From a virus (lineage: Duplodnaviria; Heunggongvirae; Uroviricota; Caudoviricetes), in IMG/VR virus record IMGVR_UViG_2681813262_000009: a stretch of DNA of 6,279 bases, one strand, 5' to 3'. The translations under genes and the position numbers were made by a program. Under the pieces are notes generated by a model, which was not told the origin of the DNA, searched no databases, and saw nothing but the letters and a program-made list of their open reading frames with translations. This document shows, piece by piece, positions 153-6,279 of this stretch; the stretch's first letter is position 1; the number at the start of each line of letters is the position of its first letter.

Positions 153-168
153 GCCCATTTACCACAAA

Positions 169-193
169 TAAAAAAGCCTTCACTGCGGAAGGC
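169..193 (-). terminator. Rho-independent terminator after the 65-aa ORF
   Basis: Minus strand reads GCCTTC-CGCAGT-GAAGGC followed by TTTTTTA. The stem contains the ORF stop codon TGA. Confidence 0.55.
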
Positions 194-377
194 GTCTGTA
201 ACAACCGAACTGATAGTCTGCCAGACCCGCCATAACCAGCTGGGTCAGTATTAACTGGCAGCGTTCGCGTGAAAGGTAAGTATTCTGCGCTATCTCCCCG
301 ACTGTCGCCGGTTCGGTAACGCTTAATTCATTAAACACCACTCTGGCGGTTTCTGTCATATCCTGCTGTTTTAGCAT
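180..377 (-). CDS. Hypothetical 65-aa protein, possibly a small winged-helix/HTH-like DNA-binding protein
   Basis: ORF track MLKQQDMTE...RRLPQ. ATG at 375-377 is preceded by AAGGA with ~6-nt spacing. It is identical in both repeat copies and followed by a terminator. The HTH guess rests on the helix-turn-helix-like stretch TVGEIAQNTYLSRERCQLILTQLVMAGL and is inference. Confidence 0.45.
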   Translation of the reverse strand: MLKQQDMTETARVVFNELSVTEPATVGEIAQNTYLSRERCQLILTQLVMAGLADYQFGCYRRLPQ

Positions 378-495: not shown

Positions 496-521
496 ATAAA
501 AAACCCGCTCGGCGGCGGGTT
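496..521 (-). terminator. tR'-like rho-independent terminator ending a short pR' transcript
   Basis: Minus strand reads AACCCGC-CGCCGA-GCGGGTT followed by TTTTAT, about 65 nt downstream of the predicted pR' start. Confidence 0.65.
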
Positions 522-553
522 GTAGAAACTCTTCTAACGTCAGGCATAAAACG

Positions 554-596
554 CCCATCGTTATGACGAATTTACCACAGATTCCGGAAAAATCAA
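554..596 (-). promoter_or_regulatory. Sigma70 late promoter resembling lambda pR' with a -10-like pause element; the Q-utilisation site is expected here
   Basis: Minus strand: -35 TTGATT (plus 591-596), 16-bp spacer, -10 TAAATT (plus 569-574), 6 nt, then AACGATGGG (plus 562-554). As I recall it, lambda pR' has the same TAAATT -10 followed by AACGATGGG. It sits immediately downstream of the Q-like gene. Confidence 0.6.
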
Positions 597-601
597 CCTT
601 G

Positions 602-1423
602 TTACCTAGTTACCTTTTTTAACTGCCGCTCAGCCCATGCTTCTTCAATATCAAACCGGGTCACCAGCGCATCATAAAATTTCTTAACTGTTTTTTCCCA
701 TGACGCGCGTGTTATCTGGTTTGTCACCTCGCATATAGCATTAAATGCCTCCGTTGATGGTAGTCTTTCATAGCCACGACCACCACAACGCTGGCAGTCT
801 CTGATAACAGGCATACCACGTTTTACCGACTCTTCACGATGAATGGCGACACCACGCCCACGGCAATCCTTACAGGCGGTGGAAACCTCACCCTTTCCGC
901 CACACTCCGGACAGGCAACTTTTACCACCTCCCTGACTTTTTTCCATTCTTCCCAGTAAGACGGATACACACCTTTCGTACACTTTGCCCATACCGGCGG
1001 CTTACCATCCGGATACTGGACCTTGTTTGTAAAAACTACGCTTTCAATAAATTTTTCCCCATAGCAACAAGGGCACTGCTTTTTACTCGCTGCGCTGCGG
1101 GCATAATCCTCAAAAGCGTACGAAGCCATAATGCGCATCACTACCGGTTTTATTTCTGCCGGAAGTTTTCTCAACGCCGCCACACGATCGCACCGACTGA
1201 GTGCATAATCTGCCAGTAATTCTGTTGCCCGCGCCCTGTCATTCATACTGATGCCCATTTTCCCCAGGAACGCAGAAAACCCCATCTCAGCCCGATTCTG
1301 TGTCATGCCCTGCGCGGCCATCACATCAGTGATACTCAGCGCATCTTTTGACGTTGAGGCCGATGCATCGGTCAGGCAAGGGGATTTTGGGGAGTAGTAT
1401 TTCGGTAAATCTTCCAGTTTCAT
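602..1423 (-). CDS. Phage antitermination protein Q (long Q family of enterobacterial lambdoid prophages), 273 aa, cysteine-rich
   Basis: ORF track. Position is immediately after rusA and immediately before a pR'-like promoter/terminator. Contains CxxC motifs (CPCC, CPECGGKG, CKDCRGRG, CQRCGGRG) suggesting zinc binding. N- and C-terminal sequence resembles what I recall of prophage Q homologues. Start overlaps the rusA stop (ATGA). Confidence 0.75.
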   Translation of the reverse strand: MKLEDLPKYYSPKSPCLTDASASTSKDALSITDVMAAQGMTQNRAEMGFSAFLGKMGISMNDRARATELLADYALSRCDRVAALRKLPAEIKPVVMRIMASYAFEDYARSAASKKQCPCCYGEKFIESVVFTNKVQYPDGKPPVWAKCTKGVYPSYWEEWKKVREVVKVACPECGGKGEVSTACKDCRGRGVAIHREESVKRGMPVIRDCQRCGGRGYERLPSTEAFNAICEVTNQITRASWEKTVKKFYDALVTRFDIEEAWAERQLKKVTR

Positions 1424-2171: not shown

Positions 2172-2212
2172 TAGACTGGCCCCCTGAATCTCCAGACAAC
2201 CAGTATCACTTA
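2172..2212. repeat. IS2 left terminal inverted repeat (IRL)
   Basis: Imperfect match to the reverse complement of 3462-3502 (shared ...TTCCAGACA...TATCACTTA). Confidence 0.85.
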
Positions 2213-2262
2213 AATAAGTGATAGTCTTAATACTAGTTTTTAGACTAGTCATTGGAGTACAG

Positions 2263-2628
2263 ATGATTGATGTCTTAGGGCCGGAGAAACGCAGACGGCG
2301 TACCACACAGGAAAAGATCGCAATTGTTCAGCAGAGCTTTGAACCGGGGATGACGGTCTCCCTCGTTGCCCGGCAACATGGTGTAGCAGCCAGCCAGTTA
2401 TTTCTCTGGCGTAAGCAATACCAGGAAGGAAGTCTTACTGCTGTCGCCGCCGGAGAACAGGTTGTTCCTGCCTCTGAACTTGCTGCCGCCATGAAGCAGA
2501 TTAAAGAACTCCAGCGCCTGCTCGGCAAGAAAACGATGGAAAATGAACTCCTCAAAGAAGCCGTTGAATATGGACGGGCAAAAAAGTGGATAGCGCACGC
2601 GCCCTTATTGCCCGGGGATGGGGAGTAA
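2263..2628 (+). CDS. insC: IS2 OrfA (InsC), 121 aa, HTH transposase N-terminal component
   Basis: ATG at 2263 preceded by GGAG. Protein [29 protein letters not shown]... The ORF track's extended 136-aa start at 2218 is upstream of this site. Confidence 0.9.
2580..2586 (+). other. Programmed -1 ribosomal frameshift heptamer A AAA AAG joining orfA to orfB
   Basis: aaaaaag at 2580-2586 lies in the orfA frame (GCA AAA AAG TGG), and orfB is in the -1 frame overlapping here. This is the classic IS3-family arrangement. Confidence 0.8.
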
Positions 2629-3491
2629 GCTTAGTCAGCCGTTGTCTCCGGGTGTCGCGTGCGCAGTTGCACGTCATTCTCAGACGAACCGATGACTGGA
2701 TGGATGGCCGCCGCAGTCGTCACACTGATGATACGGATGTGCTTCTCCGTATACACCATGTTATCGGAGAGCTGCCCACGTATGGTTATCGTCGGGTATG
2801 GGCGCTGCTTCGCAGACAGGCAGAACTTGATGGTATGCCTGCGATCAATGCCAAACGTGTTTACCGGATCATGCGCCAGAATGCGCTGTTGCTTGAGCGA
2901 AAACCTGCTGTACCGCCATCGAAACGGGCACATACAGGCAGAGTGGCCGTGAAAGAAAGCAATCAGCGATGGTGCTCTGACGGGTTCGAGTTCTGCTGTG
3001 ATAACGGAGAGAGACTGCGTGTCACGTTCGCGCTGGACTGCTGTGATCGTGAGGCACTGCACTGGGCGGTGACTACCGGCGGCTTCAACAGTGAAACAGT
3101 ACAGGACGTCATGCTGGGAGCGGTGGAACGCCGCTTCGGCAACGATCTTCCGTCGTCTCCAGTGGAGTGGCTGACGGATAATGGTTCATGCTACCGGGCT
3201 AATGAAACACGCCAGTTCGCCCGGATGTTGGGACTTGAACCGAAGAACACGGCGGTGCGGAGTCCGGAGAGTAACGGAATAGCAGAGAGCTTCGTGAAAA
3301 CGATAAAGCGTGACTACATCAGTATCATGCCCAAACCAGACGGGTTAACGGCAGCAAAGAACCTTGCAGAGGCGTTCGAGCATTATAACGAATGGCATCC
3401 GCATAGTGCGCTGGGTTATCGCTCGCCACGGGAATATCTGCGGCAGCGGGCTTGTAATGGGTTAAGTGATAACAGATGTCTGGAAATATAG
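2586..3491 (+). CDS. insD: IS2 OrfB (InsD), transposase catalytic (DDE) component, 301 aa; normally made as an OrfAB fusion by frameshifting
   Basis: ORF track [14 protein letters not shown]...[14 protein letters not shown]..., in the -1 frame relative to orfA. Confidence 0.9.
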
Positions 3492-3502
3492 GGGCAAATC
3501 CA
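3462..3502. repeat. IS2 right terminal inverted repeat (IRR)
   Basis: The reverse complement TGGATTTGCCCCTATATTTCCAGACATCTGTTATCACTTA pairs with IRL. Confidence 0.85.
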
Positions 3503-4091
3503 AGGCACTGAACCAGTGCGACACCATGTTTTTCTTTCCTGTGGCATCTGCAATCTGTTTTGCCGTTATCCCCAGGGCCGCGCGCGCATCACGAAAGTAA
3601 GAAATCAGCGGGGCCATCACATGCTGTTTCAGTGCACTGCCCTTCGCCGCATACCCGGCATCTTTCGGACGATACGGCCCCTGATAATGTTCCGCGAACA
3701 GAATGCGCTCTGTGGCGGGGAAATACGCCCGCAGGCTTTCCTTGTTGCATCCGTTCCAGCGTCCGGACGGCTTCGCCCAGATAATATGGTTCAGCACACT
3801 GAAGCGTTCACGCATCATGATTTCGATATCAGATGCCAGGCGATGACCACAGAACAGGTAAAGACTTCCGGCAGGTTTCAGCACCCGCCAGAACTGCGCC
3901 AGACACTGGTCCAGCCACTTCAGGTAATCATCGTCGCCCTTCCACTGGTTATCCCAGCCCTCAGGCTTCACTTTAAAGTACGGCGGGTCCGTGACTATCA
4001 GGTCAACAGAATTTTCGGGTAACGACCGGATAAATTCCAGGCAGTCGGCGTTGATTAACTCGCAACTGGATATTTTTACAGTATTAAGCAT
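3503..4091 (-). pseudogene. Beta-class DNA methyltransferase (N6-adenine/N4-cytosine type, DPPY motif) truncated after codon 196 by IS2
   Basis: ORF 3462..4091 has DLIVTDPPYF at residues 30-39. Only the first 196 codons are non-IS sequence; the last 13 codons and the stop come from the IS2 right end. The C-terminal region expected to bind SAM is absent. Confidence 0.8.
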
Positions 4092-4123
4092 GGATCATTA
4101 AGCCTGTCTCTGATAGGCTCATT

Positions 4124-4142
4124 CTGCTTTTGCGCAAAGCAG
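4124..4142. promoter_or_regulatory. Copy 2 of the imperfect palindrome upstream of the methyltransferase start
   Basis: Identical to 62-80. Confidence 0.2.
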
Positions 4143-4183
4143 TGGGCCTGAGGTTTGCTTGTGAACCCAACGCATGAGCAGAT

Positions 4184-4214
4184 GGCTGGTGGGTGCCCCT
4201 AACACCCACCAGCC
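4184..4214. repeat. Copy 2 of the perfect 12-bp inverted repeat with 7-nt loop
   Basis: Identical to 122-152. Confidence 0.5.
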
Positions 4215-4230
4215 GCCCATTTACCACAAA

Positions 4231-4255
4231 TAAAAAAGCCTTCACTGCGGAAGGC
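4231..4255 (-). terminator. Rho-independent terminator after the 65-aa ORF (copy 2)
   Basis: Identical to 169-193. Confidence 0.55.
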
Positions 4256-4439
4256 GTCTGTAACAACCGAACTGATAGTCTGCCAGACCCGCCATAACCA
4301 GCTGGGTCAGTATTAACTGGCAGCGTTCGCGTGAAAGGTAAGTATTCTGCGCTATCTCCCCGACTGTCGCCGGTTCGGTAACGCTTAATTCATTAAACAC
4401 CACTCTGGCGGTTTCTGTCATATCCTGCTGTTTTAGCAT
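4242..4439 (-). CDS. Hypothetical 65-aa protein (copy 2), identical protein to 180..377
   Basis: Start taken as the ATG homologous to copy 1 (4437-4439). The ORF track's 94-aa form (to 4526) arises only because a 2-bp indel at about 4446 brings an upstream ATG into frame. Confidence 0.45.
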   Translation of the reverse strand: MLKQQDMTETARVVFNELSVTEPATVGEIAQNTYLSRERCQLILTQLVMAGLADYQFGCYRRLPQ

Positions 4440-4558
4440 GTCTTTTTCCCTTTTCCGGTTAACGTGACACACCAATAACTCTTGTCGAAAAAGCCAGCAA
4501 GCTGAAAGACAGGTATTCACCGCCACCAGCGCGTTTACTGTACTGACGCGATTTCAGT

Positions 4559-4584
4559 CATAAAAAACCCGCCAGGCGGCGGGG
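4559..4584 (-). terminator. tR'-like terminator (copy 2) with a different stem-loop sequence
   Basis: Minus strand reads CCCGCC-GCCT-GGCGGG followed by TTTTTTAT. The stem differs from copy 1 but keeps a GC stem plus U-tract. Confidence 0.65.
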
Positions 4585-4617
4585 TGTAAAAAATCTTCTA
4601 ACGTCAGGCATAAAACG

Positions 4618-4660
4618 CCCATCGTTAGAGCAAATTTACCACAGATTCGGGAAAAATCAA
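4618..4660 (-). promoter_or_regulatory. pR'-like late promoter with pause element (copy 2)
   Basis: -35 TTGATT (4655-4660), 16-bp spacer, -10 TAAATT (4633-4638), then AACGATGGG (4626-4618) are all conserved although the surrounding bases differ from copy 1. Confidence 0.6.
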
Positions 4661-4665
4661 CAACA

Positions 4666-5484
4666 CTATCGCGTTACCCTCTTTAACTGCCGCTCCGCCC
4701 ATGCCTCTTCAATGTCAAACCGAACCACCAACGTATCGTAAAAGCGTTTCACTGATTTTTTCCACGTATCAAGCGTGATAGCACTCGTCACTTTGCATAT
4801 GGCATTAAATGCCTCCGTTGATGGCAGCCTTTCACAGCCACGACCACCACAACGCTGGCAGTCTCTGATAACAGGCATACCACGTTTTACCGACTCTTCA
4901 CGATGAATGGCGACACCACGCCCACGGCAATCCTTACAGGCGGTGGAAACCTCACCCTTTCCGCCACACTCCGGACAGGCAACTTTTACCACCTCCCATT
5001 TTTTCCATTCTTCCCAGTAAGACGGATACACACCTTTCGTACACTTTGCCCATACCGGCGGCTTACCATCCGGATACTGGACCTTGTTTGTAAAAACTAC
5101 GCTTTCAATAAATTTTTCCCCATAGCAACAAGGGCACTGCTTTTTACTCGCTGCGCTGCGGGCATAATCCTCAAAAGCGTACGAAGCCATAATGCGCATC
5201 ACTACCGGTTTTATTTCTGCCGGAAGTTTTCTCAACGCCGCCACACGATCGCACCGACTGAGTGCATAATCTGCCAGTAATTCTGTTGCCCGCGCCCTGT
5301 CATTCATACTGATGCCCATTTTCCCCAGGAACGCAGAAAACCCCATCTCAGCCCGATTCTGTGTCATGCCCTGCGCGGCCATCACATCAGTGATACTCAG
5401 CGCATCTTTTGACGTTGAGGCCGATGCATCGGTCAGGCAAGGGGATTTTGGGGAGTAGTATTTCGGTAAATCTTCCAGTTTCAT
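4666..5484 (-). CDS. Phage antitermination protein Q (copy 2), 272 aa; variant allele with a one-residue deletion and a diverged C-terminal ~55 aa
   Basis: ORF track. Identical to copy 1 over most of its length, with KKVREVV changed to KKWEVV and about 12 substitutions in the last ~55 residues. Confidence 0.75.
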   Translation of the reverse strand: MKLEDLPKYYSPKSPCLTDASASTSKDALSITDVMAAQGMTQNRAEMGFSAFLGKMGISMNDRARATELLADYALSRCDRVAALRKLPAEIKPVVMRIMASYAFEDYARSAASKKQCPCCYGEKFIESVVFTNKVQYPDGKPPVWAKCTKGVYPSYWEEWKKWEVVKVACPECGGKGEVSTACKDCRGRGVAIHREESVKRGMPVIRDCQRCGGRGCERLPSTEAFNAICKVTSAITLDTWKKSVKRFYDTLVVRFDIEEAWAERQLKRVTR

Positions 5485-5855
5485 TTTTTGACCTGCCCTT
5501 CAAGCATTATGGGGTAAATCTTCACCCCCAGACGTCCACCAGATACTGGCTGACCACGAACGATATTGATTTCATCAAACTGCTCATCGTCCATTAACAC
5601 TCCCGCATGTGTCAGTGCATCCAGTGGTGCTTTCAGGATATTGTCCAGGTCACGACGGCGCTTATCCGGTGGCTCTGCAATAATCTTTATCGCCAGTCTT
5701 CCGGACAGGCTTAATTTCAGTCGCTGCTGACGGACAATAAGCGCCACATCCCGGCGATAACGCTCACCGGCTTTTGATACAAAATATGTGTTGTCACGAC
5801 GTCGCCAGTAAGTATTCACCGTCGGCGGATAAGGTAAAATAAACTCATGGCGCAT
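5481..5855 (-). CDS. rusA: RusA-family Holliday-junction resolvase (copy 2)
   Basis: ORF track. Differs from copy 1 at two C-terminal residues (PIMLEGQVKK versus PIMHEEQVKK). Confidence 0.85.
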   Translation of the reverse strand: MRHEFILPYPPTVNTYWRRRDNTYFVSKAGERYRRDVALIVRQQRLKLSLSGRLAIKIIAEPPDKRRRDLDNILKAPLDALTHAGVLMDDEQFDEINIVRGQPVSGGRLGVKIYPIMLEGQVKK

Positions 5856-6112
5856 CAGCGCAGCACCTCCTGCACCAGTTTTTCAAACTTTCCGACTCTG
5901 GTTTCCAGCTCTGCCACACAGTCCACCAGCTCATCTACTGCTTTCTGTGCGCGATGCTTCGCCTGCATCAGTTCCCGAAGCGCGGGTACCATATCTTTAC
6001 GGATAGCGTCTTTTGTTATGCCCGTTTTTTCGAGTTGTTCAGCATGACGCAGCATTTCCTGCGCGTGTTTACGCAATTGTTCAGGGGTAAAAGTCATTGT
6101 CTGGTTGTTCAA
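5855..6112 (-). CDS. Hypothetical phage nin-region protein (copy 2)
   Basis: Identical to 1794..2051. Confidence 0.55.
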   Translation of the reverse strand: MNNQTMTFTPEQLRKHAQEMLRHAEQLEKTGITKDAIRKDMVPALRELMQAKHRAQKAVDELVDCVAELETRVGKFEKLVQEVLR

Positions 6113-6232
6113 AAGAAACGCTCCATCTTACTGCTGTCAGTTCGTTTATTACTGTATCTGCGCGGATTGCCGGGCTTCATGGGAGTGGAAAGCACCCGTG
6201 CACTTTCCTGGTCCACAGGCAGAAAATGTCCG

Positions 6233-6279
6233 TAGACTGGCCCCCTGAATCTCCAGACAACCAGTATCACTTAAATAAG
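6233..6279 (+). mobile_element. IS2 left end (first 47 bp), truncated by the window edge
   Basis: TAGACTGGCCCCCTGAATCTCCAGACAACCAGTATCACTTAAATAAG is identical to 2172-2218 and sits at the same junction with the flanking prophage DNA. Confidence 0.9.

Follow-up and report, generated by a model that had tools for sequence, protein, structure and literature searches.

A predicted late promoter cassette of the lambda Q family, with a short terminated leader, in two copies beside IS2 in prophage DNA

Gene content and arrangement of the window

The stretch of viral DNA analyzed here (IMG/VR record IMGVR_UViG_2681813262_000009, Caudoviricetes; 6,279 nucleotides, hereafter the window) contains two diverged copies of one prophage segment, in which the genes of interest lie on the minus strand throughout. 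Each copy carries, in order, an 85-aa open reading frame, a RusA resolvase gene, a Q antiterminator gene of 272 or 273 codons, an intergenic region, a 65-aa open reading frame and the start of a DNA methylase gene. A complete IS2 element separates the two copies, and the left end of a second IS2 is found at the equivalent junction after copy 2.

1-2171: prophage segment, copy 1
4063-6232: prophage segment, copy 2
602..1423, minus strand: Q antiterminator of copy 1, 273 aa, lambda-Q family (Pfam PF03589)
4666..5484, minus strand: Q antiterminator of copy 2, 272 aa, 95% identical to copy 1, with the differences concentrated C-terminally
180..377, minus strand: first downstream gene of copy 1, 65 aa, with a weak winged-helix match
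29 (start), minus strand: DNA methylase gene of copy 1, following the 65-aa gene
3462-4091: methylase open reading frame downstream of copy 2
2172-3502: complete IS2, 1331 bp
6233-6279: left end of a second IS2

Inspection of the IS2 junctions revealed no target-site duplication at the first element, the flanks of which read GTCCG and AGGCA, and showed that the methylase frame downstream of copy 2 runs into IS2 and is thereby truncated. The arrangement has the appearance of a ~4.06-kb unit rearranged or amplified through IS2, or else of an assembly artefact; the window as a whole, in this arrangement, was found in no complete Escherichia coli genome. Identity between the copies is uneven: stretches such as 1-300 and 938-1237 are 100% identical to their counterparts, whereas the 3' end of Q, the promoter and the terminator (381-680 versus 4445-4744) are just 90% identical. 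The repeat is therefore mosaic, in the manner expected of recombination with another prophage allele, and does not reflect a simple recent duplication. The interval between the 65-aa gene and the methylase gene also contains a long GC-rich inverted repeat (GGCTGGTGGGTG...CACCCACCAGCC) at 89-153 and 4151-4215, which scored 24.2 bits (E 0.09) with the Rfam family P26, below its gathering score of 36.

A predicted lambda-like late promoter directly after Q

The gene upstream of the intergenic region was called Q in the initial annotation, and profile searches bear this out. The copy-1 protein matches PF03589 with 183.7 bits (E 6e-55, cut-off 26.7), close beside lambda Q itself at 193.4 bits, and its BLASTP alignment with lambda Q extends from the first to the last residue at 31% identity (2e-39) with one large central gap, making it a full-length homologue. 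An HMMER search against the PDB sequences likewise returns 7UBM/7UBN, where the lambda Q chain is matched at E 1.5e-40 over residues 1-113 and, separately, over residues 182-273, and neither PF06530 (Q21) nor PF06323 (Q82) matched the window Q at E <= 0.01. Compared with lambda Q, the window protein has an insertion of ~68 aa (residues ~114-181; window 882-1084, minus strand) that brings in two additional CxxC pairs and gives a weak, sub-threshold match to the DnaJ zinc finger (CXXCXGXG). This insertion coincides with the zinc-ribbon arm of lambda Q, which comprises residues 114-152 and is one of the two parts of that protein that contact DNA (PMC9388147). An AlphaFold model of the window Q has a mean pLDDT of 63, with scores of 41-66 within the insertion, values from which the geometry of the arm cannot be inferred.

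Starting 5 nt past the stop codon of the copy-1 Q gene (604-602), the intergenic region presents a series of promoter-like motifs that recurs with the same layout in copy 2.

591..596, minus strand: -35 element TTGATT, copy 1, matching lambda TTGACT in position
575..590, minus strand: 16-nt spacer TTTCCGGAATCTGTGG, copy 1, ending in a TGn extended -10 (T577 G576)
569..574, minus strand: -10 element TAAATT, copy 1, identical to that of lambda pR'
568-563, minus strand: 6-nt segment CGTCAT, copy 1
554..562, minus strand: AACGATGGG, copy 1, as in lambda in both sequence and distance from the -10
545..548, minus strand: TATG at +15..+18, copy 1, fitting the T-N-Y-G pause-site consensus
4618..4660, minus strand: promoter and pause element of copy 2
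4660-4655, minus strand: -35 element TTGATT, copy 2
4639-4654, minus strand: spacer TTTCCCGAATCTGTGG, copy 2, one base different from that of copy 1
4638-4633, minus strand: -10 element TAAATT, copy 2
between the -10 and AACGATGGG, minus strand: 6-nt segment TGCTCT, copy 2
4626-4618, minus strand: AACGATGGG, copy 2

The order TTGATT, 16 nt, TAAATT, 6 nt and AACGATGGG had been read by eye just after Q on the minus strand, and every one of these elements is found there. The initial annotation had further stated that lambda pR' contains the same -10 and downstream motif. The lambda genome (NC_001416) indeed reads TTGACT-17-TAAATT-TGACTC-AACGATGGG, with the first A of AACGAT at base 44587 and the T-tract of tR' ending 194 nt later, such that the -10, the 6-nt distance and the motif at the predicted +1..+9 are all identical between the two. 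In lambda pR', AACGAT occupies +1..+6 as a -10-like element and is followed by GGG, a discriminator-like sequence (PMC4005639). On this model, A562 is the predicted start site of copy 1, with AACGAT at +1..+6 as the predicted sigma70-dependent pause element and GGG at +7..+9. A simple promoter scan had missed this late promoter, which agrees with the consensus at 8 of 12 positions against a cut-off of 9. Ten bases across the extended -10 (578-569) recur as TGTGGTAAAT after the 65-aa gene (157-166, minus strand), probably by chance.

The likeness to lambda extends to the surrounding genes. As in the lambda cassette, which is described as a Q gene, PR', a sigma-dependent pause element, a terminator and late genes, and for which three Q families have been named (PMC9388147), the window has a Q of the same Pfam family, a promoter directly after it and a terminator ahead of the presumptive late genes. 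Past +9, however, the window leader has no visible similarity to that of lambda, and several promoter features differ as well. The -35 and spacer are TTGATT and 16 nt rather than TTGACT and 17 nt, the extended -10 TGn sets the window apart from lambda, and the spacer is unrelated in sequence to that of lambda, where it contains the Q-binding site. In lambda, a TTGACT beside the pause element marks where sigma region 4 takes up its new position while Q loads (PMC9388147), whereas the corresponding positions of the window read TCGTCA in copy 1 and TTGCTC in copy 2, each agreeing at 3 of 6 bases; this segment is hypervariable in the clade to which the window belongs.

The predicted pause site itself is also displaced. 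A T-N-Y-G consensus has been described for such sites (bioRxiv 10.1101/2022.01.24.477500), and the TATG of the window lies at +15..+18, 1 nt downstream of the lambda register (+14..+17), a position from which polymerase would be predicted to pause at about +17. Among 26 leader variants T17 never changes and T15 is kept in at least 90%, and T-N-Y-G with its Y at +15..+18 appears in 23 of 59 unique leaders, compared with 10 +/- 2.8 in shuffled sequences; the motif is thus enriched but not universal. Together with the missing TTGACT, the 16-bp spacer and the insertion in the Q arm (~68 aa with two additional CxxC pairs), the T-N-Y-G shift indicates that the geometry of Q loading may differ in detail from that of lambda.

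The start site and the activity of the promoter are assigned here by homology with lambda, as are pausing, the binding of Q to the spacer and antitermination, and from that homology the following sequence of events would be expected. RNA polymerase carrying sigma70 would initiate at A562 (4626 in copy 2) from the TTGATT / TGn-TAAATT promoter, after which sigma region 2 would re-bind the -10-like AACGAT(GGG) on the non-template strand at +1..+6 and hold the polymerase in a pause at about +16/+17. Without Q, polymerase would escape the pause and terminate at a hairpin followed by U6, releasing an RNA of ~65 nt. With Q, the protein would bind the spacer between the -35 and the -10 (TTTCCSGAAWCTGTG in the window) and load onto the paused complex. 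Transcription would then continue past this and subsequent terminators, covering the 65-aa gene, the methylase, the tRNAs and the genes for lysis and morphogenesis.

A competing view is that the element is an intact-looking relic within an IS2-rearranged and apparently defective prophage, where it would no longer control a late operon and would at most give rise to a constitutive short RNA. The IS2 at 2172-3502 and the second IS2 end at 6233, without a target-site duplication, fit this view, as does the absence of the whole arrangement from complete E. coli genomes, and copy 2 at least may not drive a complete late operon given that its methylase frame enters IS2. We nevertheless regard this reading as doubtful, for both Q frames are full length and both promoter and terminator sets are intact, while the genes downstream of copy 1 extend beyond the edge of the window, which is therefore not diagnostic for that operon. 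The relic reading moreover concerns present-day use rather than the identity of the element.

Conservation and exchange of the cassette among lambda-Q family prophages

To place the window among its relatives, IMG/VR was scanned for TAAATT-N6-AACGATGGG. The scan returned two promoter types along with about a dozen unrelated chance matches. The first is the lambda type with its long leader, where the upstream Q of every site shares 90% or more identity with that of lambda; the second, that of the window, has the leader CGTTTTATGCCTGACGTTAGAAGA and a terminator, and here every site with a readable upstream frame follows a Q at least 80% identical to that of the window. A profile search restricted to one genome per species yielded 80 loci from many Enterobacterales, among them Klebsiella, Enterobacter, Kluyvera, Pantoea, Edwardsiella, Serratia, Providencia and Photorhabdus, in which Q is 30-99% identical. 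In ~75 of the 80, the same layout recurs after the Q stop codon: a -35, a clade-specific spacer, a -10 (TAATTT, TAAATT or TAGGAT, for example), 5-7 variable bases, a AACGATGGG-like element, including near variants such as AATAGTGGG, AATAATGGA and AACACTA, and a terminator.

This recurrence bears on whether the resemblance to lambda might be fortuitous and devoid of function, a concern that the initial annotation had itself raised. The motifs are short, which leaves some room for coincidence. The combination TAAATT-N6-AACGATGGG, however, occurs twice in the window and in 0 of 200 shuffled versions of it, and the pattern stands after Q in dozens of diverged loci; chance resemblance is accordingly ruled out for practical purposes. 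Given the Q family, the identity with lambda and the ~75 of 80 related loci, the lambda-like pR' reading is well supported, and the element is very probably the cassette that regulates the late genes of a lambdoid prophage with an antiterminator of the lambda-Q family.

The same loci put the length of the leader into perspective. A terminator was found by script in 71 of them, and in 65 of these 71 the stem ends at +47..+70. A leader that ends by about +70 is therefore the family norm, and the 194 nt of lambda are the exception. The transcript had been predicted to be much shorter than lambda 6S RNA, and so it is (~65 versus 194 nt), though its shortness is typical of the family rather than a peculiarity of this prophage.

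Promoter spacers are usually not conserved. In the clade of the window (Q 50-99% identical), by contrast, the spacer TTTCCSGAAWCTGTG and the TGn motif are nearly invariant while positions -6..-1 vary freely, and TTTCCSGAAWCTGTG persists almost unchanged in ~30 promoters across genera even where Q is just 50-60% identical; other Q clades have other conserved spacers. Because the spacer is conserved, positions -6..-1 are variable and spacers differ by Q clade, TTTCCSGAAWCTGTG (within 575-590 and 4639-4654) is likely the Q-binding element of these promoters, a candidate assignment that rests on this pattern and on analogy with lambda. The TTGACT beside the pause element is present in lambda-like and in some other clades, and may be a subfamily feature rather than one that defines the family.

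Closest to the window are cassettes with a long lambda-family Q (250-277 aa) in prophages of Enterobacterales, from Klebsiella, Enterobacter, Kluyvera, Salmonella, Photorhabdus, Providencia and other genera, which have the same architecture and a similarly short leader. The nearest clade shares the spacer TTTCCSGAAWCTGTG and a TGn-TAAWTT -10 with the window, and more distant long-Q clades have other spacers together with the variant pause elements AATAGTGGG and AATAATGGA. Most genera carry TTTACT as the -35 in place of the TTGATT of the E. coli version, and their leader and terminator sequences are unlike those of the window. The searched literature contained no experimental characterization of long-Q cassettes. 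The family comparison offers a candidate Q-binding sequence for a large, unstudied subfamily, and it indicates that neither the long 6S leader nor the TTGACT element of lambda is general.

In E. coli 55989 and in phage SfV, Q is followed by the 65-aa gene and the methylase, with tRNAs next in 55989, and then by a holin; these downstream genes are the late operon. Homology between the window and other phages breaks right after the T-tract of the terminator, as at a mosaic breakpoint: one phage shares Q through terminator with the window and then diverges, and many Stx2 phages, as well as Sakai Sp9, share only the region distal to the terminator and the 65-aa gene. In Sp9 the same slot, between rusA and the shared module of 65-aa gene and methylase, holds a Q with a promoter and terminator, but this Q (ECs_1778) is an unrelated protein of the Q21 family (PF06530/DUF1133), and the promoter, leader and terminator are different and lack AACGATGGG. 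The breakpoint after the T-tract and the replacement seen in Sp9 indicate that Q, promoter, leader and terminator form a unit that is exchanged as one module.

The cassette is also common. A 115-bp element spanning it was present at 80% identity or more in 2,439 of 5,426 complete E. coli genomes (about 45%), at up to four places per genome, and the only annotation listed beneath these matches was the end of the Q gene. The element is thus an ordinary, widespread and unannotated late promoter cassette of the lambda family, an uncharacterized member of a well-understood kind. As a textbook type of switch it changes no concept; its value lies in marking where transcription of the late operon is predicted to start in these prophages, and in related Stx phages the toxin genes are transcribed from the equivalent place.

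The predicted short leader RNA

Both copies end the predicted leader in a terminator equivalent to tR', and both begin it with a predicted RNA hairpin.

498..521, minus strand: terminator, copy 1; stem 521-502, T6 503-498
4562..4583, minus strand: terminator, copy 2; stem 4583-4568, T6 4567-4562
536..562, minus strand: predicted 5'-terminal RNA hairpin (+1..+27), copy 1, formed by the transcribed pause element and CCUGACGUU
4600-4626, minus strand: the same predicted hairpin, copy 2

The predicted RNA runs from 562 to about 498 in copy 1 (~65 nt) and over 4626-4562 in copy 2 (65 nt). The terminator stems differ, being CCCGC/GCGGG with a 6-nt loop in copy 1 and CCCGCC/GGCGGG with a 4-nt loop in copy 2; both were nonetheless detected by a terminator scan and both fold stably, in line with the initial annotation. 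The copy-1 terminator has a folding energy of -11.2 kcal/mol (z = -2.6), and the whole predicted RNAs, at 65-67 nt, reach z of about -2.5. A GC stem and U-tract had been placed about 45 nt after AACGATGGG; the structure is there, but its distance needs correcting, as the stem begins at +42, 32 nt past the end of AACGATGGG. The designation as a 6S-RNA analogue likewise applies in part, fitting the RNA by position and origin but not by sequence or length, given that only +1..+9 is common to it and the 194-nt lambda RNA. Rfam 15 gave sub-threshold matches only over the window, with no family at its gathering score, and a literature search for the leader sequence found no paper.

A translated attenuator was also considered, in which a 22-codon open reading frame would run from the ATG inside AACGATGGG through the terminator. 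Such a frame (MGVLCLTLEEFLQPAAERVFYD) can be read from 558, and the Rfam Trp_leader model aligns to 495-601. At 21.8 bits (E 0.65), however, that alignment falls far short of the gathering score of 41; a ribosome-binding site is absent, the lambda sequence at the same place is ATG GGT TAA, a frame of two codons, and close variants of the window leader differ by 1-nt indels that break the frame. We therefore rejected the leader-peptide reading as highly improbable.

Folding of this RNA suggested a second structure at its 5' end. AACGAUGGG is predicted to pair with CCUGACGUU at +19..+27 (-8.6 kcal/mol, z = -2.2), and the same hairpin is predicted in most leaders of the family. When 65 unique leaders were folded to minimum energy, 6.2 of the 9 nt at the 5' end paired with +13..+37, compared with 3.3 +/- 0.3 in shuffled sequences. 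Across 26 variants aligned without gaps, 92% of cells are paired, versus 28-39% when the partner is slid out of register, with the changes being one-sided transitions only. Where the pause element varies between clades, the partner tends to match it (AACGA/UCGUU, AACA/UGUU, UAGUGGG/CUCACUA, UAAUG/CAUUA and AAUGGU/ACCAUU), and an exhaustive permutation of 8 arm classes against 8 downstream classes favored the cognate pairing at p = 0.005; the leader sequences entering these statistics are related by descent.

Four cruder tests were not significant. Duplex energy did not differ significantly from shuffled sequences (median p about 0.19 in the canonical class), nor did the best 9-pair register; a test on 10 cluster representatives gave a Fisher p of 0.05, which we counted as non-significant, and swapping arms on the basis of the longest helix gave p 0.37. 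RNAalifold found no structure in a MAFFT alignment of 45 leaders, in which the terminator arms were misaligned. The evidence for a conserved 5'-terminal hairpin is, as a whole, suggestive. We tentatively entertain, as a less probable addition to the late promoter assignment, that the leader is a conserved structured RNA in which +1..+9 is kept paired with ~+19..+30 across the family, the partner tending to co-vary and the hairpin starting from the 5' nucleotide. In E. coli, where mRNA decay can depend on the 5' end, a stem-loop at the 5' nucleotide is expected to stabilize a transcript. If the hairpin is real, it could thus stabilize both the short RNA and the long late mRNA.

A role for the RNA in its own right can be considered by comparison with StxS, an Hfq-binding sRNA derived from the PR'-tR' transcript of Stx phages that regulates rpoS and stx1B, and that is processed by RNase E from a 258-nt transcript to a 74-nt form (PMC7547250). 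Short terminated RNAs from late promoters are also described for phages 21, phi80, 82 and P22, the lambda 6S RNA being without known function (PMC7547250). The window RNA, as predicted from sequence, resembles StxS as a short constitutive transcript of an antiterminated late promoter that ends at tR', but it belongs to a different Q cassette. By this analogy the ~65-nt transcript could be a functional trans-acting sRNA in lysogens rather than a by-product of antitermination. The StxS authors proposed antiterminated phage promoters as a source of sRNAs (PMC7547250), the predicted RNA combines a GC hairpin and U6 tail with an unstructured AGAAGAGUUUCUACAA stretch, and the element is carried by close to half of the complete E. 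coli genomes searched. The RNA matches no Rfam family, however, and the middle of the leader varies widely among clades, as a conserved seed would not, which leaves an sRNA function unlikely. Were either the hairpin or the sRNA role to prove true, a constitutive prophage RNA in thousands of strains would gain a function, and the ~65-nt RNA could act in lysogens as StxS does.

A 66-nt prophage sRNA of nearly the same size, HnrS, has reportedly been described of late from Sakai Sp9, Sp10 and Sp12 and is said to pair with the 3' end of mazF. We considered whether HnrS is the window leader RNA and rejected this, as the Q of Sp9 belongs to the Q21 family and the Sp9 leader is different; HnrS lies elsewhere, which also counts against the sRNA reading. 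With a mazF 3' end as the query, the window has no complementary site, and the only complementary site in Sp9 (2 mismatches; L285 22677-22694, minus strand) lies near the lysis genes. This site is likely the location of HnrS and unrelated to the late promoter, provided that the mazF sequence used as the query is correct.

In both copies, a hairpin with a T-run that resembles a terminator also overlaps the stop codon of the 65-aa gene (176-193 and 4238-4255, minus strand), where it would represent an additional terminator for Q-modified polymerase to pass.
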